The position numbers and the translations under genes were made by a program. Of a stretch of 64,000 nucleotides of DNA, positions 4,342-19,912 are shown piece after piece. The DNA lies in NCBI GenBank assembly GCA_964593805.1, contig CAZQHP010000001.1, forward strand, positions 256,091 through 320,090, read 5' to 3'. Source of the DNA: an uncultured Candidatus Saccharibacteria bacterium. GTDB lineage: Bacteria > Patescibacteriota > Saccharimonadia > Saccharimonadales > JBBQAJ01. Positions within the stretch are counted from its first letter, which is position 1. Each line of letters begins with the position of its first letter. The notes under the pieces are model-generated. The model was not told where the DNA came from, made no database searches, and was given only the letters and a program-made list of their open reading frames with translations.

Positions 4342-4418
4342 TGGTACACCCGGCGCGATTTGAACGCACGACCTTTGGTACCGGAAACCAACGCTCTATC
4401 CAGCTGAGCTACGGGTGC
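4342..4418 (-). tRNA. tRNA-Arg (anticodon CCG), CCA encoded
   Basis: The reverse complement GCACCCGTAGCTCAGCTGGATAGAGCGTTGGTTTCCGGTACCAAAGGTCGTGCGTTCAAATCGCGCCGGGTGTACCA folds as a cloverleaf. Anticodon loop is TTCCGGT. Confidence 0.85.
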
Positions 4419-4419
4419 T

Positions 4420-4494
4420 TGGTGCCCCTGGAGAGACTCGAACTCCCAATTTCAGTTCCGAAGACTGATGTGATATCCATTTCACTACAAGGGC
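4420..4494 (-). tRNA. tRNA-Arg (anticodon UCG), CCA encoded
   Basis: The reverse complement GCCCTTGTAGTGAAATGGATATCACATCAGTCTTCGGAACTGAAATTGGGAGTTCGAGTCTCTCCAGGGGCACCA has a 7-bp acceptor stem, GTGA/TCAC D stem, anticodon loop CTTCGGA and T loop TTCGAGT. Confidence 0.8.
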
Positions 4495-4540: not shown

Positions 4541-5824
4541 ATGACACAGATTCGTAGTATTGAGGAGGCCAATCAGTTGCTGGCGGCATACGTGCCGCAG
4601 GTTAGGGAATTGCTAGGTAAAGATCTTACATTGGCACGCATGGAACCGTTGCTGGCGCGCCTGGGAAATCCTGAGCGCGGGCTCAAAATCATCCACGTGG
4701 CTGGCACGTCTGGCAAAACCTCTACGGCTTACTATATTGCTTCGCTGCTGAAGGTAGCGGGGAAGAGGGTTGGCTTGACGGTATCGCCGCATTTGGATTC
4801 GGTGAGGGAGCGGGTACAGATAGACCTGGAGCCATTGCCCGAAGCCGTATTTTGCCAGGCGCTGGGAGAGTTTTTAGATCTGATTGCCGAGGTTGAGCCG
4901 AAGCCAACCTACTTTGAGCTGTTAATTGCGTTCGTGTACTGGTACTTTGCCAAAATTGGCGTGGACTACGCGGTTATAGAAACGGGTCTGGGGGGGAGCT
5001 TTGATGCCACAAACGTAGCAGGGAACAGCAGTAAAATTTGCGTTATTACAGATATAGGGCTAGACCACACGCATGTGCTTGGAGACACCTTAACAGAGAT
5101 AGCAGGGCAGAAGGCCGGCATAATCCATAACGGCAATCAAGTATTTATGCACCAGCAGTCCCCTGCTGTCATGGGCGTTTTTGAAAAGGTAACAAAAGAA
5201 CGAAACGCAATACTTAACGTGTTAAGTGATTTTGAAAACCTCAGCAGGGGACTATTTGTGCCGGAATTCGCAAAACTACCGCAATATCAGCAGCGCAACT
5301 GGTTGCTGGCCAAAGCGTCCTATGACTATATTGCCGAACAAAATTCCCTGCCCTCGCTAAATACTGTGCAGTTGGCCCAGGGCATGGCCATACAAGTGCC
5401 TGGGCGCATGGAGGTTCGGGCTTTAGCCGGCAAGACCATTGTCATGGATGGCGCCCACAACGAACAGAAGATGGAAGCTTTTGTAAACAGTTTCAAAGCG
5501 CTGTACCCCGGCAAAAAGGCGAACGTTTTGCTGGCGCTGAAAGAAGGCAAAGAATACAAAACGGTTTTGCCGTTGATTCGTCCAATCTGCAACCGGCTGA
5601 TTGTGACGTCTTTCAAAACGGCCCAGGATCTGCCAATAATTTCAATCAATCCAAAAGTCCTAGCAGCTGCAGCAAAAAAGCTTGGCTTTGGAATTGTTCA
5701 GACCGAGCCGGATTACGTGAAAGCGTTCCAGCTACTGCTAGAATCTCCAAAAAATATCACTATCATAACCGGTTCTTTTTATTTGCTAAGCAGCCTGAGA
5801 CCCTACATACTTAAGAACACATGA
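4541..5824 (+). CDS. folC: folylpolyglutamate synthase / dihydrofolate synthase
   Basis: Mur-ligase P-loop HVAGTSGKTST, plus ETGLGG and DGAHN motifs. Confidence 0.85.
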   Translation: MTQIRSIEEANQLLAAYVPQVRELLGKDLTLARMEPLLARLGNPERGLKIIHVAGTSGKTSTAYYIASLLKVAGKRVGLTVSPHLDSVRERVQIDLEPLPEAVFCQALGEFLDLIAEVEPKPTYFELLIAFVYWYFAKIGVDYAVIETGLGGSFDATNVAGNSSKICVITDIGLDHTHVLGDTLTEIAGQKAGIIHNGNQVFMHQQSPAVMGVFEKVTKERNAILNVLSDFENLSRGLFVPEFAKLPQYQQRNWLLAKASYDYIAEQNSLPSLNTVQLAQGMAIQVPGRMEVRALAGKTIVMDGAHNEQKMEAFVNSFKALYPGKKANVLLALKEGKEYKTVLPLIRPICNRLIVTSFKTAQDLPIISINPKVLAAAAKKLGFGIVQTEPDYVKAFQLLLESPKNITIITGSFYLLSSLRPYILKNT

Positions 5825-7588: not shown

Positions 7589-9637
<2,049 letters not shown>

Positions 9638-12943: not shown

Positions 12944-13200
12944 CCCGTTAGAGCCAGAAAACGCTTAAGCCTGTTTTTCAGGTAGCGCTTTCCCATTCCT
13001 GTTTTAAGATATTTCTCTCTAGCGAGAGCATCATTCGCATCCATACATGCTTCATAATATATCAAATCATACGGTCCACGATGTTTTGTGTACATAGACT
13101 TTCCTTCCCGATGCTCAGACAAGCGTTTTCGAAGATCTGACGTATAGCCTGTGTAAAATGCTTCACTTTTCGTGCTGCGCAATACGTATACGTAGTACAT
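12940..13200 (-). CDS. stand-alone GIY-YIG nuclease-domain protein
   Basis: YYVYVLRS...FYTGYTSDLRKRLSEHREGK is the GIY-YIG signature. The ORF track extends to 13236, but the MYYVYVL start at 13200 is more likely. Confidence 0.75.
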   Translation of the reverse strand: MYYVYVLRSTKSEAFYTGYTSDLRKRLSEHREGKSMYTKHRGPYDLIYYEACMDANDALAREKYLKTGMGKRYLKNRLKRFLALTG

Positions 13201-13223
13201 ACTGGCTCTAACGGGATTCATAG

Positions 13224-13297
13224 CAATAAGTATCAAGTATCAAGTAGCAGGTAGCAAGTACTAAAGGATTTTTCTTGCAACTTATTACTTGAACTGG
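13224..13297. repeat. inverted CAAGT-heptamer array element (copy a)
   Basis: ATAAGTA TCAAGTA TCAAGTA GCAGGTA GCAAGTA, then spacer AAAGGATTTTTCT, then the inverted arm TGCAACTTATTACTTGAAC. Confidence 0.7.
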
Positions 13298-13519
13298 TAC
13301 ATATGAGAGATAGCTTGGTTGTCTTATGCTAAGGTATCTTTGGCATATTAGTTTCCCGAGTGGCATGCTGGTCTGTACCCCGCATTACCCAAAAATACTG
13401 TTCAGCTACCAGTTATTGCAGATGGAATGGTAAGTTTCAAGATTCAGCTAAGATTAACTTGACGATATATAATAGTGATGATACCGTATGTCTACTACAG
13501 GTGTAATTAAAGGATTACT

Positions 13520-15535
13520 ATGGCAGCTGACGATACATTTTCTAGCCCTGGTATACGCCATGAAAGTGGTGGTCATGAAGTGCCACGGGATCTTTTTGGG
13601 CCACCAGCGTCCGAACAAGAATTCTCACATAACCTTCTAGCCGAGAGAAACCATATACTTGATGATGCTGTCAAAGCCGCAGTAGCCGATAAAATACTTG
13701 CTGTAGGGGCAGAGCGATTACCGGCCACTTCGGATTACTTTTTGGCTCGCTTAGACCAATCCATACTGGATTCTATCGGTGCTATTGGCTATGACACAGA
13801 GCTGGCTGTCATTGCTCCGCCTACTCAAAACAGCGATATTACAAAAAATGTTGACCTAGCTCTCAATGCAGTAAAAATAGCAAAGCAGGCTCAACAAAAT
13901 CCTCTAGAAGTTGCTTCTAGAATAGCGACAAATCTGACAAAACAGACGGGGATTGAACAAGCTGTCAGTGCTGGTCCGTTTGTGAATGCCTCGATTGATT
14001 ACTCAGTTGCAGGCCCTGAAATTTTGGCAGAAGTCGCCAAATTTAAACACCGCTATGGCTATTTTAGGGATGGAGAACCTCAACTTGTTATCGTTGACTA
14101 CTCGTCTCCAAACGTGGCAAAAAACATGACTTTAGCTCATCTGCGCTCAACCATAATTGGTCATACGCTTACGAAAATTCAGCAAGCTGTTGGCAATGTC
14201 CCATTTGGGGTCAATCACATTGGTGACTGGGGAACTCAATTCGGAAGCATAATTTACCAATATAAGAAAGAATTGGCTGAACGGGGAGAGGAATTTTTAA
14301 CAGAGCTTGTCGCTGATCCTACGGCGACATTAATGCACGCCTACCGAAAATTTAACGAACTGCAAAAAGATAATCCAGAATCAGCCGATGCAGCACGCGA
14401 AATTTTCTTGAAACTAGAACAGGGTGATCCAGAACTGGTGGAACTATGGGATCAATTCCGAACCTGGAGTTTGAGTGCCTTTGGTCCGTCTTATGAGCAA
14501 CTTCGGGTTTCTTTTGATGCTATTCAGGGCGAGAGTTTTTATGAAGATAGAATGACGCCGGTCGTCGAGGATGCACTGGCTAAGCACGTCTTAAAAACAA
14601 ATGAAGACGGTGCGATTGTTTTTCCGTCTCAGCCCCTCACTAATCCTTCTACGGGCTCAATTAACGATCGTGTAATGTTGGATCAAGGCGGAAAGCCCCG
14701 TGACGAAATTATCATCAAGCCGTCTGGAGGTACTGTTTACTTGACTCGCGATTTAGCTGCCATACGTTATCGAGCAGAAGAACTAGGAGCCGATAAAATT
14801 CTTTATGTCATAGGTAAAGAGCAGCAAACACATTGTATGGAGTTATTCGCAATGGCTCATCAACTTGGTTACGTAGCCTTAGGTGGCGCCGAACACATTT
14901 CTTTCGGACACTTAAATGTTGACGGACGCAAAATGAAAAGTCGTGAGGGCAAAGTGGCATTGCTCAGTGAAATAGTTGACGAAGCAGTTGCCGCCGCCTC
15001 GGGTATGTTAAGTGAACGCAAAATATTACGAGGAGAAGCATACGAGCTTGATGACGAAGAATTAGAAATAGCCCGCAAAATTGGAACCAGTGCTCTTATC
15101 TTCAACGACCTTCGACAGGATCGTCAAAAAGATATAGAATTTTCACCCAATATGGCAAAGACTTTAGAGGCTGGTGGTGCGTCATACATCCAATATACCG
15201 ATTCACGTCTCGGTAGTATTCTTAAAAAACTCGGCGAACCCAGTGTATTAACTCCGCTGCCATCTTTATCGACCGCGGAACGAGAGGTCTTGATGAAAAT
15301 TGCTCTCCTGCCAGTTGTCATCAAACAGGCAGCCGAATTCAACGCCCCGCACAGAGTGGCGACTTACTTGACTGCCTTCTGTCGAACCGTGAACGTCTTT
15401 TATCATGATCACTCAATCGCAAACGCTGATACTGAGCAAGAACGAAACTTTCGCTTACATCTTGTCAAAGCTGCAAAACAAGTCATAGAGAATGCAAGCA
15501 ATTTACTTCATATTGAGCTTCCGGGAAGAATGTAG
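13520..15535 (+). CDS. argS: arginyl-tRNA synthetase with N-terminal extension
   Basis: Class-I signature SSPNVAKNMTLAHLRSTIIG, KMSK-like MKSREGK, and a C-terminal end ...LLHIELPGRM typical of ArgRS. About 60 extra N-terminal residues. Confidence 0.85.
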   Translation: MAADDTFSSPGIRHESGGHEVPRDLFGPPASEQEFSHNLLAERNHILDDAVKAAVADKILAVGAERLPATSDYFLARLDQSILDSIGAIGYDTELAVIAPPTQNSDITKNVDLALNAVKIAKQAQQNPLEVASRIATNLTKQTGIEQAVSAGPFVNASIDYSVAGPEILAEVAKFKHRYGYFRDGEPQLVIVDYSSPNVAKNMTLAHLRSTIIGHTLTKIQQAVGNVPFGVNHIGDWGTQFGSIIYQYKKELAERGEEFLTELVADPTATLMHAYRKFNELQKDNPESADAAREIFLKLEQGDPELVELWDQFRTWSLSAFGPSYEQLRVSFDAIQGESFYEDRMTPVVEDALAKHVLKTNEDGAIVFPSQPLTNPSTGSINDRVMLDQGGKPRDEIIIKPSGGTVYLTRDLAAIRYRAEELGADKILYVIGKEQQTHCMELFAMAHQLGYVALGGAEHISFGHLNVDGRKMKSREGKVALLSEIVDEAVAAASGMLSERKILRGEAYELDDEELEIARKIGTSALIFNDLRQDRQKDIEFSPNMAKTLEAGGASYIQYTDSRLGSILKKLGEPSVLTPLPSLSTAEREVLMKIALLPVVIKQAAEFNAPHRVATYLTAFCRTVNVFYHDHSIANADTEQERNFRLHLVKAAKQVIENASNLLHIELPGRM

Positions 15536-15537
15536 TT

Positions 15538-16758
15538 GTGACCGAGATCGTGCAGTCTAATCCAGAATATCTACCAGCTCGTGAGCTGATGGAGCGAATG
15601 GTTGCGAGTAGCCAACGTCCTGGCGAAGGCAACCTGAAATTTGTCGATACTATGGGAATGTTTCTGGCGGAGAATAATTTTCAAGTGTACAGCGTGCCAG
15701 ACCAAGACTATGCAGACAGAGCGCTACTGGTCGTAGACATTGGCGATCCTGACGGTGACCAAGTTCTGGCTGCACTCAGTCACTCAGATGTTGTCGGAAT
15801 TGAGGGCCAAGATTGGATTCGCAACCCGTGGGAGCTGAGCGAAGAGCAAGACCAATGGTTCGGACGGGGTGTTTGCGACACGCACGGTAGTGGGGTTGCC
15901 ATGTTGTTGGCCGGAGCTCGACCAGAAGTTATTAGTGCGCTTGTCGCAGCTCATAAAAAAGTCAGTATTATTTTTACTTCTGATGAAGAAGCTCCCGAAA
16001 CAGCGCTATCGTATCGTGGGGCAAAATTGGCCGCCGGGCTTTTAGGACATGACCCTGTTATAACTGCACAATATTTTATCGCTGGTGAACCTACGGAAGT
16101 TGATGGTGGCATAACAGCGATGCGTAGTCATAAGGGACGCTGGCTCGCTCATTTTGCTTTGTCAGTAGAACACTCAGGCCATGCTGCTGACGACGTTCAG
16201 AACGCTTTTGCTCTTGGCTCGGACATCGTGTACTTAATTAATCAATACGGGCGTAGGCTGCGCTTTGATGCGCATGAAAGTTCCGAAGAAAGTATATTTG
16301 AACCGAATTATTCTACAGCGCAAGTAACGGCTGCAAAAGTTAAAAATGGTGACTACTCGACAACGCCTGATACTGCTAGTTTCACTGTTGACCTCAGAAT
16401 TTTACCTGATGAGCACGATAAGCGTGTTGATGAACTCAGGCGGATTATTAATACTGACCTTATGGAGTCAGGCGTGAGGCTTAACTTAGAAATAGTTGAC
16501 GAGTTCAGAGGTACCACAACAGAACCCAATTCACCAATAGTAAAATTGGCAGAAATGGCAACAGGCAAATCAGCTAAAGGTTTTAATGGAGGTGATGAGG
16601 GTGAGATATTAAGGTCGTGTGGTAAAGAAGGCGTTACCATTGGTCCGGGTCAACTCGGCTTTGCGCATATGCCCAACGAAGAGATCGAAGTTCAATCTGT
16701 ACTCAGGGCTGCAGATATCTACGGCCAGATATTTCGTAATGCTGTCAAACTAATCTAA
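15538..16758 (+). CDS. M20-family metallohydrolase (ArgE/DapE-like deacylase)
   Basis: Metal-ligand pattern LSHSDVV, GRGVCDTHGSG, TSDEEAPE, GEPTE and GFAHMPNE. GTG start 2 nt after the argS stop. Confidence 0.7.
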   Translation: MTEIVQSNPEYLPARELMERMVASSQRPGEGNLKFVDTMGMFLAENNFQVYSVPDQDYADRALLVVDIGDPDGDQVLAALSHSDVVGIEGQDWIRNPWELSEEQDQWFGRGVCDTHGSGVAMLLAGARPEVISALVAAHKKVSIIFTSDEEAPETALSYRGAKLAAGLLGHDPVITAQYFIAGEPTEVDGGITAMRSHKGRWLAHFALSVEHSGHAADDVQNAFALGSDIVYLINQYGRRLRFDAHESSEESIFEPNYSTAQVTAAKVKNGDYSTTPDTASFTVDLRILPDEHDKRVDELRRIINTDLMESGVRLNLEIVDEFRGTTTEPNSPIVKLAEMATGKSAKGFNGGDEGEILRSCGKEGVTIGPGQLGFAHMPNEEIEVQSVLRAADIYGQIFRNAVKLI

Positions 16759-16787
16759 AATGTAGGGCTGTAATAAATACTTCAATT

Positions 16788-17813
16788 ATGAATCTGCCAA
16801 ATCCAGAAACAATTATTCCAAACGACGAGGCAATGCCTGTTGCTGATAATGTCATCGATTACGCTAACCATAATGGTCTGCTTGTTCCAAAAGTTATCAG
16901 GGAGCGTAGTACGAAACTATTCTTTGATCGATTGGATCACATGGTTGTTAATACACATGAATATGGCGGTACCTTGCCTGCAGCATGGGAGGAGGCCGAA
17001 CAAGGTCGTCTCGACCTTACACAGATATCGTCGCCAATCGAAACTCATCTTAATGGTCAAGAAGAACGAACAATCAGAGACGCAGTTAGAAAAATCAAAA
17101 ATGCCGGCATTACTTCTGTTGTAATTGAGGCGGCTCATGCGTATGTTTATGAAGATATTGACGACCCTCAATTACAAGAGAGCATATTGGCGCAAACACG
17201 CAAAGCGAGTGCGTTAACTAAGCGATTAGAAGAGAGCGGTTTGGTAGTGAGAAGCATTCTTTTTGTGGATGACTATAACCCCGATCCCGAGGATGGTCAG
17301 ATGCATGAACGGCTTGACATTGAGAAGTTTGTGGAGCTGACACGTTCCGGTGGGTATAACCCAGAAATGGTTATCAAAGAAGCCGGAATGGTTGCATTGG
17401 CAAAAGCCATGATTGATATCATGAAAGACCGACAACACATTGTGACAATTGAAAATCCAGAAGCGGATACATCAGTAGATGTATCCGAAGGAGCGTCTGG
17501 TAGCAAAGCGTTGCTTATAAGAAAGAAGATTGAGCTTCACAGAATTGATGAGGACATGGTAAGTTGTGCCATGCTTGATGCTGCCTTAACCATAGTCAAA
17601 TTTAGATATCTTGGCCAGGGGGTTATGAATATTTTGCCTCGTTATCCCGGCAGTCAAGATTTTAGTTATAAAGGCCAACAGCAAAAAGTGCGTGAAATAA
17701 TCCGCGAACATTTGAATGTACGTATACCGCCCTTTTTCAACTTATTTGTGGGCGGCGACACAGCCGTCGGTGCGCATAATGCCTTTCGTAAATCCAGCAA
17801 AAAACGGCAGTAG
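16788..17813 (+). CDS. hypothetical protein (341 aa), no recognisable motif
   Basis: Long ORF, co-directional 29 nt after the M20 gene, with protein-like composition. Confidence 0.6.
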   Translation: MNLPNPETIIPNDEAMPVADNVIDYANHNGLLVPKVIRERSTKLFFDRLDHMVVNTHEYGGTLPAAWEEAEQGRLDLTQISSPIETHLNGQEERTIRDAVRKIKNAGITSVVIEAAHAYVYEDIDDPQLQESILAQTRKASALTKRLEESGLVVRSILFVDDYNPDPEDGQMHERLDIEKFVELTRSGGYNPEMVIKEAGMVALAKAMIDIMKDRQHIVTIENPEADTSVDVSEGASGSKALLIRKKIELHRIDEDMVSCAMLDAALTIVKFRYLGQGVMNILPRYPGSQDFSYKGQQQKVREIIREHLNVRIPPFFNLFVGGDTAVGAHNAFRKSSKKRQ

Positions 17814-17836
17814 TAGTACCATATGTATATAAGTAT

Positions 17837-17865
17837 TTGCCAAACAACTGATAATATACTACAAT
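17837..17865 (+). promoter_or_regulatory. sigma70-like promoter TTGCCA-17-TACAAT
   Basis: -35 at 17837-17842, 17-nt spacer, -10 at 17860-17865. The predicted start falls at about 17872-17873. Confidence 0.55.
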
Positions 17866-17872
17866 CTCAACT

Positions 17873-17944
17873 ATGCTACAGTTCGCAACCATCGGTTTTA
17901 ATTTTCGTCGACGAGGAACTCGTATTATCGGGGGTTGCTCCTGA
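17873..17944 (+). CDS. 23-codon Arg-rich mini-ORF (candidate leader peptide or small peptide), apparently leaderless
   Basis: ATG CTA CAG TTC GCA ACC ATC GGT TTT AAT TTT CGT CGA CGA GGA ACT CGT ATT ATC GGG GGT TGC TCC TGA encodes MLQFATIGFNFRRRGTRIIGGCS. It sits between a promoter and a terminator. Confidence 0.35.
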   Translation: MLQFATIGFNFRRRGTRIIGGCS

Positions 17945-17971
17945 AGTTTTCTATAGTAACAAAGCCTTAGC

Positions 17972-17997
17972 AGCCCCTATTACCTAGGGGGCTTTTT
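17972..17997 (+). terminator. intrinsic terminator
   Basis: AGCCCCTA-TTACC-TAGGGG(G)CT, an 8-bp stem with one bulge, followed by TTTTT. Confidence 0.7.
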
Positions 17998-18058
17998 AAA
18001 TAAAAAGGATGACAATGTATATTTTCAGATGTCTAATAACATATAAGGAATGTAATCT

Positions 18059-18811
18059 ATGAATCAGCTGGGCATTAACTCATTCATTGGGATTGTTTCT
18101 GGTACGGGACCCTTGGCAGGCGCGAATGTCTTAGAGAAAGTTTTTAAGTATGCAGCGAATGAATATGGTGCTGTACAGGATGATGCATATCCCGACGTGT
18201 TGCTTGTTAACCATGGCACTGAAGGTGTAGATAACCTGGGCACCTTAAACGGTGCATTTGAAAGAGAAACCTTGAGTGCCATCAAATATTTGGAGAAACA
18301 AGGTGCTACGGTAATCGGTGTTGCTTGCAACACTGCTCACATTCATTTAGGTGAAATAAAGCTTAAACCCCAAACAACACTAGTCAACCTAATTGATGCT
18401 ATTTCTGCTGAGGCAGCACAGAAACCAGCACAATACCTGCTTATGACATCTAAGGCATCAAGAGACGAAAAGTTGTTTCACAAGTACCTTAAGAAATATG
18501 ACGTTTCGTTCACTGAAACTAGCGATGGGGAACAGAATCTTTTAGATGAAGTTATCAGCCAGGTGATGGCCTATAAACTAGTTCAGGCAGGGCAGACAAT
18601 AAAAAAAGTATTTGCGCTAGCAAAGCGGAGAGGCGTTACTGATATTATCGCAGGCTGCACGGAGTTTCCCTTAGCCATAGACCGCTGTGACGATGCACAA
18701 AACTTCAACATAATCGATTGCAACCATGTCTTGGCCAAAAATTTAGCGGACAAATATTACGCTGGAACTATCAAAGTACTTAAACAAAATAAAACCATAG
18801 TCACTAAGTAG
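18059..18811 (+). CDS. Asp/Glu/hydantoin-type amino-acid racemase (aspartate racemase-like)
   Basis: GTGPLAG N-terminal motif and two catalytic Cys motifs, VACNTAH and AGCTEFPL. Confidence 0.8.
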   Translation: MNQLGINSFIGIVSGTGPLAGANVLEKVFKYAANEYGAVQDDAYPDVLLVNHGTEGVDNLGTLNGAFERETLSAIKYLEKQGATVIGVACNTAHIHLGEIKLKPQTTLVNLIDAISAEAAQKPAQYLLMTSKASRDEKLFHKYLKKYDVSFTETSDGEQNLLDEVISQVMAYKLVQAGQTIKKVFALAKRRGVTDIIAGCTEFPLAIDRCDDAQNFNIIDCNHVLAKNLADKYYAGTIKVLKQNKTIVTK

Positions 18812-18822
18812 AAAGCCTGAGT

Positions 18823-19344
18823 ATGCCCTCTAGTAATGCACATGAGAACCAAATGGAATGTCGCCCGTTTGATCTATCTATTACGGCCGACATAAAAAAA
18901 CTTACCAGCTGGTCGGGCTCTGGAGACATGATCCCACTGGGCCTGGAGGGTATTGCCCGCCATCATTTGTCGACTGGAGTGTATGTTGGCGGTGAACTAG
19001 CTGGCTATGGAGCAGTTACCGTTTTATATTCAGGCGACATTATAGAGTTTGGGGGGTTGGTAGTTGACCCAAACATGAGACGTCACCACCTAGGGAGTAC
19101 TATTGCCAAACATGTCGTCAAACAAGCTCGGGAAGAACTAGACCCGGAACTCATACTTGCATTCAGTAGTGAGAGAAGCGCCCTTTTGTTTGAAAAGCTT
19201 GGGGGGAAAGTGATTGAAAATGCTAATACTCTTCCTCCCGAAGTTTGGAAGCTGTGCTACATATGCCCGAGACACGAAGAAGCCCTATGTATAGGCAAAA
19301 CCTGCTGTGAGCGAGCCTTCGATATTACTGGAATAGACACATAA
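18823..19344 (+). CDS. GNAT-family N-acetyltransferase
   Basis: Acetyl-CoA motif A region GGLVVDPNMRRHHLGSTIAKHVV. Starts 11 nt after the racemase stop. Confidence 0.7.
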   Translation: MPSSNAHENQMECRPFDLSITADIKKLTSWSGSGDMIPLGLEGIARHHLSTGVYVGGELAGYGAVTVLYSGDIIEFGGLVVDPNMRRHHLGSTIAKHVVKQAREELDPELILAFSSERSALLFEKLGGKVIENANTLPPEVWKLCYICPRHEEALCIGKTCCERAFDITGIDT

Positions 19345-19420
19345 AAGTTGTGTAAATTCACAAGATTTATTATATAATAACTATTATTGGTTGATTTGTA
19401 AAGTAACACCAGGAGCACAT

Positions 19421-19912
19421 ATGTATGGATCAAATATATCAGAAGTAGAGCCAGGGAGCCGTAAAAAACTTCATTTACTTTTGGATGAAATTTATTCTAC
19501 AGATGGGATTTACGAAAAACTTCAAGAAATTGCATTTAGCCTCGGCACTATCTCTTGCCACGATAAACTGGCTGTGTTAAGCGATGTATTGCCCGATCAT
19601 CCCCGTGAAGCCGTGTCTCTCTGTGCCAAGCAAAAAGGCGGCTTAACGGTAACAAGGTTTTTCACGGATGGGGCAGGTTATAAACTTTTTAATCGTTATT
19701 GCTTAATAATGCCTTCAAAAGACATTCCCAGCTCAAGCCGATTAACTACAGACAGTCATGGTTTTAACCTAGGCTTAATGCCGGCTGAACTAAGACTGAA
19801 GAACTTTGTTAGCGTGGATCCGCAAGGTATAACAAATTACGCCCAAGGAGTTGAAAGAGCTCTAGCAGATGTAGCCGCTATTACTGGTTTGGATGGGCTT
19901 CTGCCGTCTTAG
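19421..19912 (+). CDS. hypothetical protein (163 aa)
   Basis: ORF track gives 19391 (TTG). ATG 19421 preceded by AGGAG is preferred. No motif recognised. Confidence 0.5.
   Translation: MYGSNISEVEPGSRKKLHLLLDEIYSTDGIYEKLQEIAFSLGTISCHDKLAVLSDVLPDHPREAVSLCAKQKGGLTVTRFFTDGAGYKLFNRYCLIMPSKDIPSSSRLTTDSHGFNLGLMPAELRLKNFVSVDPQGITNYAQGVERALADVAAITGLDGLLPS

Follow-up and report, generated by a model that had tools for sequence, protein, structure and literature searches.

The stretch of DNA analysed here, which we call the window, is 64,000 nucleotides long and comes from an uncultured Candidatus Saccharibacteria bacterium. Between a gene for a 341-aa protein and a gene of the Asp/Glu-racemase family, its plus strand carries a short element made up of a promoter, a small arginine-rich open reading frame (ORF) and an intrinsic terminator, all in that orientation. 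The promoter, as read from the sequence, has TTGCCA (17837-17842) as its -35 hexamer and, after a 17-nt spacer, TACAAT (17860-17865) as its -10 hexamer, 7 nt 5' of an ATG. At this ATG begins the leader ORF, MLQFATIGFNFRRRGTRIIGGCS (17873-17944), which has 23 codons followed by a TGA (17942-17944) and is not preceded by a Shine-Dalgarno (SD) sequence. Transcription is predicted to start at or next to A17873, which would make the mRNA leaderless. Codons 12-14 are the tandem arginine codons CGT CGA CGA (17906-17914), the proposed site of ribosome stalling, and codon 17 is the third conserved arginine codon, CGT (17921-17923), corresponding to the invariant columns 16-18 of our alignment A3. The RNA can be divided into competing segments. 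Segment 1 (17884-17894) is a tentative anti-antiterminator strand, which may pair with segment 2 when no ribosome is present. Segment 2, C GGGGG TTGCT (17929-17939), comprises the final codons of the ORF and would serve as the antiterminator's 5' strand. Segment 3, AGCAGCCCCTA (17969-17979), which in the window is the 5' arm of the terminator plus the three bases upstream, is common to the antiterminator, with segment 2, and to the terminator, with segment 4. A conserved, anti-SD-like block, GCCTTAGC (17964-17971), lies just 5' of the terminator and shares 3 nt with segment 3. The terminator itself, detected both by a terminator scan and by folding, is a hairpin at 17972-17993 with a T-tract, T5, at 17993-17997.

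An earlier note on this DNA had already described the promoter, the leaderless 23-codon arginine-rich ORF without an SD sequence and the hairpin with its five T residues, and all of them lie where it had placed them; the geometry of promoter and ORF is also kept in the relatives described below. The pairing it had proposed between GCAACC (17884-17889) and GGTTGC (17933-17938) is part of the minimum-free-energy fold, and the run of G residues it had pointed out does exist, at 17930-17934 instead of 17929-17933. We likewise see no convincing promoter between the terminator and the racemase start, the best match there reaching 9/12 (17995-18023). A 54-aa ORF that overlaps the element (17823-17987) was discarded as a candidate, as a comparison of the frames across loci showed that it is not conserved. 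Scans of 3 kb of the window gave 7 promoter-like matches for 7.0 expected from shuffled sequences and 3 terminator-like sites for 2.1 expected, and the fold of the whole element (17872-17998) has a z-score of -1.5. With counts and fold so near to the expectation of the shuffles, the window by itself is no better than chance, and the element rises above chance because it is conserved across related loci.

Recurrence of the element in related loci

The earlier note had suggested looking for the ORF and the hairpins in relatives. We found the element, with covarying pairs, in eight further distinct copies, at loci L001, L011, L012, L013, L014, L015 (identical to L016), L017 and L139. The last of these is cut on its 5' side by the end of the contig, which leaves eight complete loci when the window is counted, and the nine sequences are all that was available for comparison. 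Contigs were fetched for eight racemase homologs at 54-56% identity, and L001 (61% identity) was added from a genome scan; the racemase scan of the genome collection yielded one locus only. The racemase homologs beside which the leader occurs are P0021-P0051, and the relatives are annotated as Candidatus Saccharibacteria or Patescibacteria. Each of the nine instances lies upstream of a homologous racemase or of its operon. The surroundings are otherwise unrelated and include cytochrome oxidase genes, tRNA genes, RadC, a cassette of arginyl-tRNA synthetase (ArgRS) and M20 hydrolase genes, and others. An nhmmer profile built from the nine copies recovered a single copy in each locus (E 1e-17 to 1e-21); neither the rest of the window nor about 130 further loci that were fetched had a comparable match. 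No second leader was seen upstream of the ArgRS gene of the window (12944-13519), and a scan of viral contigs with AAGCCTTAGCAGCC returned more than 100 chance 14-mer matches, in none of which the element was present.

The promoter is recognizable in the relatives. L001 has the same TTGCCA with a 17-nt spacer, L012 has the perfect TTGACA-17-TATAAT and L017 has TTGACA-17-TAGAAT. In seven of the eight complete loci 6-7 nt separate the -10 hexamer from the ATG, in L015 10 nt, and no SD sequence is found. In L012 (5175-5251) and L017 (3180-3255) the leader promoter begins immediately after a tRNA-Gly(GCC) gene.

Six loci came from a scan of metagenomes with the 341-aa family; in three of them a racemase follows either the 341-aa gene or the contig end at which that gene is truncated. 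In L004 (about 870-1090) the racemase directly follows the 341-aa gene and only a decayed hairpin (GGCCCTGTAACTACGTGGGCT) is left, with no arginine ORF; L006 (about 7690-7760) has the same gene order and no element. The leader is thus not universal for the racemase.

Leader peptide and arginine codons

Of the possible frames, that of the leader is alone in having no stop in any of the eight complete loci; the others are closed in most of them. Its length varies between 22 and 25 codons through insertions and deletions in multiples of three. The predicted peptides are MLQFATIGFNF-RRRGT-R-II-GGCS in the window, MLFVYSPKVDL-RRSN-R-IY-GGCS in L001, MKNYSFTSVEN-RRRSY-R-TT-GGCS in L011, MVRHSMQSLAN-RRGR-R-IH-GGCS in L013, MLSIALTHQVM-RRNGY-R-LF-GGCS in L014, MKQYSVSLPVVIVV-RRRS-R-MS-GDCS in L015, MLHLAITIQV-RRNS-R-MY-GSCPCNC in L012, MLHLATTIQV-RRNS-R-IY-GSCPCNC in L017 and, for the truncated copy, ...RRSI-R-TS-GGCS in L139. 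The core RR-x(2-3)-R is invariant in 9/9 loci, within a wider conserved core RR-x2-3-R-x-x-G-x-C, and the N-terminal half is variable.

Arginine accounts for 13-23% of the leader codons, to be compared with 4.5% in the genes of the window. At the conserved sites all 28 arginine codons are CGT, CGC or CGA; in the genes of the window, CGG, AGA and AGG together make up 41% of the arginine codons. The two codons of the RR pair vary at their third position, and the third conserved arginine codon is CGT in every locus. The RR(R) cluster is the invariant feature that lies outside the helices described below. Adjacent genes for tRNA-Arg(CCG) and tRNA-Arg(UCG) are found in the window (4342-4494, minus strand). 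No tRNA-Arg(ACG) gene occurs within it.

Terminator and antiterminator

Pairs were counted on A3, a manually anchored alignment in which the variable spacers were padded with N and which MAFFT returned unchanged; it replaced an alignment made by MAFFT (A2), in which the 3' arm of the terminator was mis-registered. The antiterminator joins 17929-17939 to 17969-17979 of the window (columns 24-34 and 71-81 of A3), that is 11 column pairs, and over the nine loci 97% of the 99 cells are standard pairs. Four of the 11 pairs are changed on both sides, and none of 500 shuffles matched any of these values. When one strand was slid by 1-3 columns as a control, pairing fell to 37-54%. The competition between the G-run and the CCCC arm of the terminator, which the earlier note had raised as a possibility, is borne out in that this pairing is conserved through compensatory changes in the relatives. 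The terminator is conserved too: its 6-bp core is paired in 9/9 loci, with one compensatory change from C-G to U-A (L012 and L017), and a GC-rich hairpin followed by at least five T residues is present in 9/9.

The compensatory changes run through the end of the ORF, whose stop codon lies 3 nt 3' of the antiterminator strand in the window. In L015, GGG GGC has become GGA GAC, which turns GGCS into GDCS, and the partner CCCC has become TCTCC. In L012 and L017, GGG GGY TGY TCY has become GGG AGT TGT CCT, which turns GGCS into GSCP, and the partner strand AGCAGCCCC has become GATAGCTCCC or GACAGCTCCC. Furthermore, the synonymous Y positions in GGY TGY each face a G, with which both C and U pair. 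As the residue changes are compensated in the partner strand and the Y positions face G, the GGCS motif appears to be dictated by RNA pairing. On this comparative reading, the C-terminal GGCS is RNA-driven and is not a peptide product.

We then folded the RNA with ribosome footprints in place, using ViennaRNA. When the footprint covered the stop codon, the terminator formed in 8/8 loci. When it lay on the second arginine codon and no RNA 5' of it was available for pairing, segments 2 and 3 paired over 9-10 bp in the seven loci scored, and the antiterminated fold was more stable than the terminator alternative by 2.4-9.7 kcal/mol. L015 was left out of these seven because it was mis-anchored; in the full footprint folds it shows a 12-bp antiterminator as well as the terminator. 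Before segment 3 is transcribed, in folds of the ORF only, segment 2 is paired in 8/8 loci with a segment 1 that lies upstream of it. The position of segment 1 differs: it occupies the codons just after RR in six loci, where it includes a small nested CCG(U)/(A)CGG hairpin, and codons 5-8 in the window and L001. This 1:2 helix was judged on its energies only, since no fixed register could be defined for covariation, and its z-scores were significant in L012 and L017 only.

Putatively regulated genes and their neighbourhood

The gene that always accompanies the leader is the Asp/Glu-racemase-family gene (18059-18811, plus strand; Pfam PF01177). Its product reaches none of the NCBIfam cut-offs and, among solved structures, comes closest to aspartate racemases. 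It is followed on the same strand by a gene for a GNAT acetyltransferase (18823-19344) and by a 173-aa ORF (19391-19912); judging from the spacing, both are probably co-transcribed with the racemase, and L001 has the same order of racemase, GNAT and 173-aa genes. In L013 the terminator ends only about 25 nt from the racemase ATG, a gap that leaves read-through as the only plausible route to the racemase there. In L139 (131-4716) five genes follow the leader in tight packing; they encode two proteins paralogous to each other (205 and 238 aa; 34% identical), a 247-aa member of the family treated in the next paragraph, the racemase and a canonical ArgRS of 577 aa.

In the majority of relatives, the first gene under the predicted control of the leader codes for a protein of about 190 aa (MKTIVEAGHYY...LFVDDYH...PTCVFLDY...). 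The 341-aa protein encoded directly upstream of the window element (16788-17813, plus strand), for which neither Pfam nor NCBIfam has a family, is distantly homologous to it (hhalign of alignments A1 and A4: probability 95%, E 3.6e-8). The domain that the two have in common carries the motifs EAxHxY, FVDDY[NH], C..LD, ILP and Y..QQ, and members of the 190-aa family used for comparison are encoded at 5414-6004 of L011, 5426-6004 of L012 and 1505-2248 of L139. The racemase and the 190/341-aa family make up a conserved gene pair. The 341-aa family counts 20 clusters, and the mini-ORF is absent wherever an enzyme of the PALP type replaces the racemase after the 341-aa cassette.

Upstream of the element the window has, in this order, genes for an ArgRS, an ArgE/DapE-like M20 hydrolase and the 341-aa protein. 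The 671-aa ArgRS scores 355.6, above the NCBIfam argS equivalog cut-off of 261.65, and from its sequence it looks like a housekeeping enzyme. A pyruvoyl arginine decarboxylase (PvlArgDC) is encoded about 4 kb further downstream, so that ArgRS, an ArgE-like M20 hydrolase, an ArgA-like GNAT and PvlArgDC all lie near the window element; this is not so in all loci. The ArgRS-M20-341-aa cassette is found at 13520-17813 of the window, 983-5225 of L001, 3828-8026 of L009 and 950-5197 of L010. Its long ArgRS (642-671 aa) has an N-terminal extension relative to the 577-aa ArgRS of L139. The cassette is followed by a racemase or by a PLP-dependent (PALP) enzyme, with GNAT and ~173-aa genes nearby, and several of its parts resemble arginine or ornithine enzymes.

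The conserved block and the ribosome binding site

The block just 5' of the terminator, AAAGCCTTAGC (GCCUUAGC in RNA), is nearly invariant across the loci. In six of them, namely those where the next gene starts right after the terminator, it is matched by the SD sequence of that gene. The SD of L011, L013, L014 and L015, UUAAGGA, is complementary to the GCCUUAGC block, and in L012 and L017 the two have covaried, the block being GGCUCCA and the SD UGGAG. The duplex of block and SD has an energy of -5.5 to -11.4 kcal/mol in these six loci, and 1-6% of shuffles were as good. In the window and L001 there is no adjacent SD partner and the pairing is not better than chance (shuffle fraction 0.29 in the window). 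As 3 nt of the block belong to the antiterminator strand too, the SD would likewise be freed by antitermination.

Between the terminator and the racemase, the window contains a second small ORF on the plus strand, from an ATG at 18009 or 18015 to a TGA at 18060-18062, whose stop overlaps the racemase ATG (ATGA) and which is preceded by AAGGA (18005-18009). L001 has an analogous 16-codon ORF (5414-5464) that ends in TAATG at the racemase start. The AAGGA of the window occupies the position of the SD of the ~190-aa gene in other loci, and the second ORF may be a remnant or a device for translational coupling.

A candidate frameshift site in the relatives

A second site at which arginine codons may matter was found in the relatives and not in the window; it rests on the conservation of the protein encoded in the +1 frame. 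In L014 (about 5745-5775), L015 (3745-3775) and L138 (about 325-350), the ~190-aa gene is broken at the same point by CTT CGT CGA CNN TGA, and the homologous protein resumes exactly in the +1 frame after the CTT (...LG[SR]L|VD...). L011 is uninterrupted at the equivalent site, which reads CTT GTC GAC. Among 52 homolog clusters, 31 are only 119-127 aa long, and 30 of these end in ...GGVRLG-x-[L/F]-R, mostly followed by one arginine and one further residue; the remaining short cluster, P0103, diverges before the GGVRLG ending. With so many short clusters, the interruption is the majority form across many independent assemblies. Conserved motifs lie downstream of it, and the whole protein requires that they be translated.

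CUU_CGU_C is thereby a candidate for a programmed +1 frameshift site that would be promoted by a slowly decoded arginine codon. In the prfB site, CUU_UGA_C, +1 frameshifting takes place with a stop as the slowly decoded A-site codon. In the Ty1 site, CUU_AGG_C, it is the slow decoding of an arginine codon that drives +1 frameshifting (PMC5009743). The site described here resembles both in having CUU in the P site, a slow codon in the A site and a zero-frame stop soon after, and differs from them in being CUU_CGU_C and in lying within a bacterial gene of no assigned function. If it is real, the same operon would read tRNA-Arg twice, and CUU_CGU_C would provide a naturally occurring bacterial example of regulatory 'hungry-codon' frameshifting. 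The ~190-aa gene of L017 has a different frame break, of 1 nt, near codon 18 when compared with L012 (3427-3560); unlike the conserved CUU_CGU_C site, this one is probably an assembly error or a pseudogene.

Discussion

What, then, could be the function of a leaderless ORF so consistently placed before a terminator? We believe that the element is probably a ribosome-mediated, leader-peptide transcription attenuator of the trp/his/pheST type, with a leaderless ORF through which charged tRNA-Arg would be sensed. An arginine or Arg-tRNA-sensing attenuator leader was among the readings put forward in the earlier note, and the comparative data favour it: the promoter-ATG geometry, the open frame, the CGN arginine codons, the terminator and the covarying pairing that competes with it are all conserved. 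The start of transcription, the translation of the ORF, stalling on its arginine codons (and hence the dependence on arginine) and the direction of the response are what we infer. According to the model, transcription would start at or next to the A of the ATG at 17873, and a ribosome would load on the 5' AUG as it emerges. When charged tRNA-Arg is plentiful, the ribosome would reach the TGA at 17942-17944 and cover segment 2 (17929-17939); segment 3 would then pair with segment 4, and a transcript of about 125 nt would be released at the terminator. This terminated leader is also all that would remain of the ~125-nt small RNA that the earlier note had considered: the species is expected, trivially, as a by-product of termination. 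When charged tRNA-Arg is scarce, the ribosome would stall at codons 12-14 (17906-17914), and the free segment 2 would pair with segment 3 (10 bp in the window) and block the terminator. RNA polymerase would then read into the racemase gene and probably into the GNAT and 173-aa genes. In most of the relatives, antitermination probably also frees the SD of the first regulated gene from the GCCUUAGC block.

Several points weigh against this model. The arginine run is modest, three to five codons, and the link between the racemase and arginine is one that we infer. At full-length equilibrium with the ribosome on the arginine codons, four of the eight loci do not form the antiterminator, and in the window and L001 segment 2 pairs with sequence behind the ribosome; when the upstream RNA is masked as well, L001 goes over to the antiterminator and the window to a local hairpin plus the terminator. 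With equilibrium folds this unfavourable, the model relies on the kinetics of co-transcriptional folding, as in the classical systems. The 1:2 hairpin has no fixed register, and its energies are like those of shuffled sequences in six of the eight loci. A stall on the third conserved arginine codon (17921) would itself cover part of segment 2. Some homologous racemases have no element (L006) or a decayed copy of it (L004). Finally, the comparison comprises just nine sequences, whose double changes come from two lineages (L015, and L012 together with L017), and the host organisms are uncultured metagenome bins.

A first rival reading is an RNA switch whose input is not arginine, such as the status of translation or a drug, as in the erm and cat leaders, or else a protein or a small molecule; we regard this as unlikely, though the covariation supports a switch and says nothing of its ligand. 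The third arginine codon, always CGT, also makes up the 5' side of the small CCG(U)/(A)CGG hairpin in several loci, so that part of the apparent conservation of arginine could be structural. By contrast, the first two arginine codons show the third-position variation of coding sites and are not part of the conserved helices. Nascent peptides with a '+x+' motif arrest ribosomes in the presence of macrolides, and RRR fits this motif; yet it is absent from L001, L012, L014 and L017 (RRSN, RRNS, RRNG), so we discarded it as not conserved among the loci, and the downstream genes are not resistance genes. An RNA that binds a protein or a ligand would have no need of a conserved leaderless ATG and an open frame, and no Rfam riboswitch or T-box model matched.

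The conserved frame could, on the other hand, point to the peptide itself, a small cationic product serving as a modified precursor or scaffold or acting in trans like peTrpL, with the hairpin merely ending its transcript. The earlier note had proposed a precursor acted on by the neighbouring racemase, GNAT and M20 enzymes, and in its favour are the conserved C-terminal R-x-x-G-G-C-S, the enzyme cassette of the window and L001 (ArgRS-like, M20, 341-aa, racemase, GNAT) and the trans functions known for leader peptides (PMC7298713). We nevertheless find this reading quite improbable and do not retain the proposal. The element travels with the racemase only: the ArgRS-like, M20 and GNAT genes are absent from most loci, and the 341-aa cassette goes without the mini-ORF where a PALP enzyme replaces the racemase. 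The N-terminal half of the peptide is not conserved, and the changes in its core (G to D; GCS to SCPCNC) are accompanied by compensatory ones in a non-coding strand, as predicted for selection on the RNA and not on the peptide. A microcin-C-like or ribosomally synthesized and modified peptide, an idea prompted by the neighbouring genes, was rejected since the element follows the racemase alone and the ArgRS of the window passes the argS cut-off and looks like a housekeeping enzyme. The plainest explanation would be the terminator of the ArgRS-M20-341aa operon, a promoter for the racemase and a chance ORF. Within the window, promoter, terminator and fold are indeed at the level of chance, and no other terminator lies between the stop of the 341-aa gene (17813) and 17972. 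However, the promoter sits upstream of the terminator and not after it, the unit recurs in loci that lack the upstream operon, and ORF, arginine codons and antiterminator are conserved and covarying. The comparative data already contradict this explanation, and we see hardly any chance that it is correct.

If the attenuator model holds, the element would be an arginine-sensing attenuator with a covarying terminator and antiterminator and a leaderless ORF, in the Candidate Phyla Radiation, whose members have tiny genomes and almost no described gene regulation. These bacteria cannot make their own amino acids, and a tRNA-Arg switch that drives a racemase module (together with ArgRS in one lineage) would point to an epibiont sensing the supply from its host. 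The racemase and the protein family with the EAxHxY and FVDDY motifs would also be candidates for an arginine-linked function. As a tentative and rather doubtful extension, we suggest that Saccharibacteria possess a two-tier sensor of the charged tRNA-Arg that reads CGU, CGC and CGA. The first tier would be the attenuator, which also unmasks an SD, and the second, in most relatives, the +1 frameshift, at which the full-length protein would be made only when the arginine codon is slow to decode. The whole would govern the racemase together with an unknown enzyme, possibly for the salvage of arginine or D-amino acids from the host.

Comparison with known leader peptides

The attenuators controlled by leader peptides that are known sense Trp, His, Phe, Leu, Thr, Ile/Val or Cys, and the pheST operon is controlled by its cognate leader peptide. 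We know of no arginine leader of the classical attenuator kind; searches of the literature turned up no attenuator that combines an arginine leader peptide with an intrinsic terminator, and none of such a kind in Saccharibacteria. Rfam, including its Trp, His, Leu, Thr and Phe leaders, T-box and riboswitch models, gave no match at the gathering score in the window or in eight related loci, and in E-value mode it gave matches at chance level only (best E 2.1). The described leader-peptide attenuators belong to Proteobacteria, Actinobacteria and a few Firmicutes, and hisS is among the genes under the control of a cognate leader peptide (PMC2965389). The element described here shares with the trpL, hisL, pheL, leuL, thrL and pheST leaders a short ORF with a cluster of codons for one amino acid, a stop codon that lies within or beside the antiterminator's 5' strand, and an antiterminator that has one strand in common with an intrinsic terminator directly ahead of the structural genes. 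As in pheST, the operon may include the cognate aminoacyl-tRNA synthetase, here in L139, where the presence of ArgRS fits the control of such synthetases by cognate leader peptides. It differs from the classical leaders in the amino acid, arginine, that would be sensed, in an ORF that has neither the 5' untranslated region (UTR) nor the SD present in the others, in its main regulated gene, a racemase and not a biosynthetic operon, in a 1:2 hairpin that is weak and variable, and in its Saccharibacteria or Patescibacteria hosts.

Two further systems come close in one respect each. In orf34, upstream of speF in Salmonella, two adjoining arginine codons (positions 12-13) sense arginine through ribosome pausing (PMC6386406). 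The two neighbouring arginine codons in positions 12-13 of a short upstream ORF are found here as well. However, orf34 has an SD and a 5' UTR of 31 nt (PMC6386406) where our element is leaderless, and it acts through Rho-dependent termination, sequestration of a ribosome binding site and decay by RNase G where our element has an intrinsic terminator with a T-tract. Its peptide domain, DUF2618, is conserved, and the leader peptides described here are unrelated to its HIRRT*HIMM. In mycobacteria, leaderless short ORFs with poly-cysteine stretches form the first cistron and tune the expression of the downstream operon (bioRxiv 10.1101/834739). They resemble our element in being leaderless first-cistron ORFs with codons specific for one amino acid, and differ from it in sensing cysteine and in belonging to Actinobacteria; here the amino acid predicted is arginine, and the ORF is joined to a covarying intrinsic terminator and antiterminator. 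Mechanisms of the class to which we assign the element are well known. What is new, as far as it can be read from the sequences, is the amino acid, the start without a leader, the set of regulated genes and the phylum.

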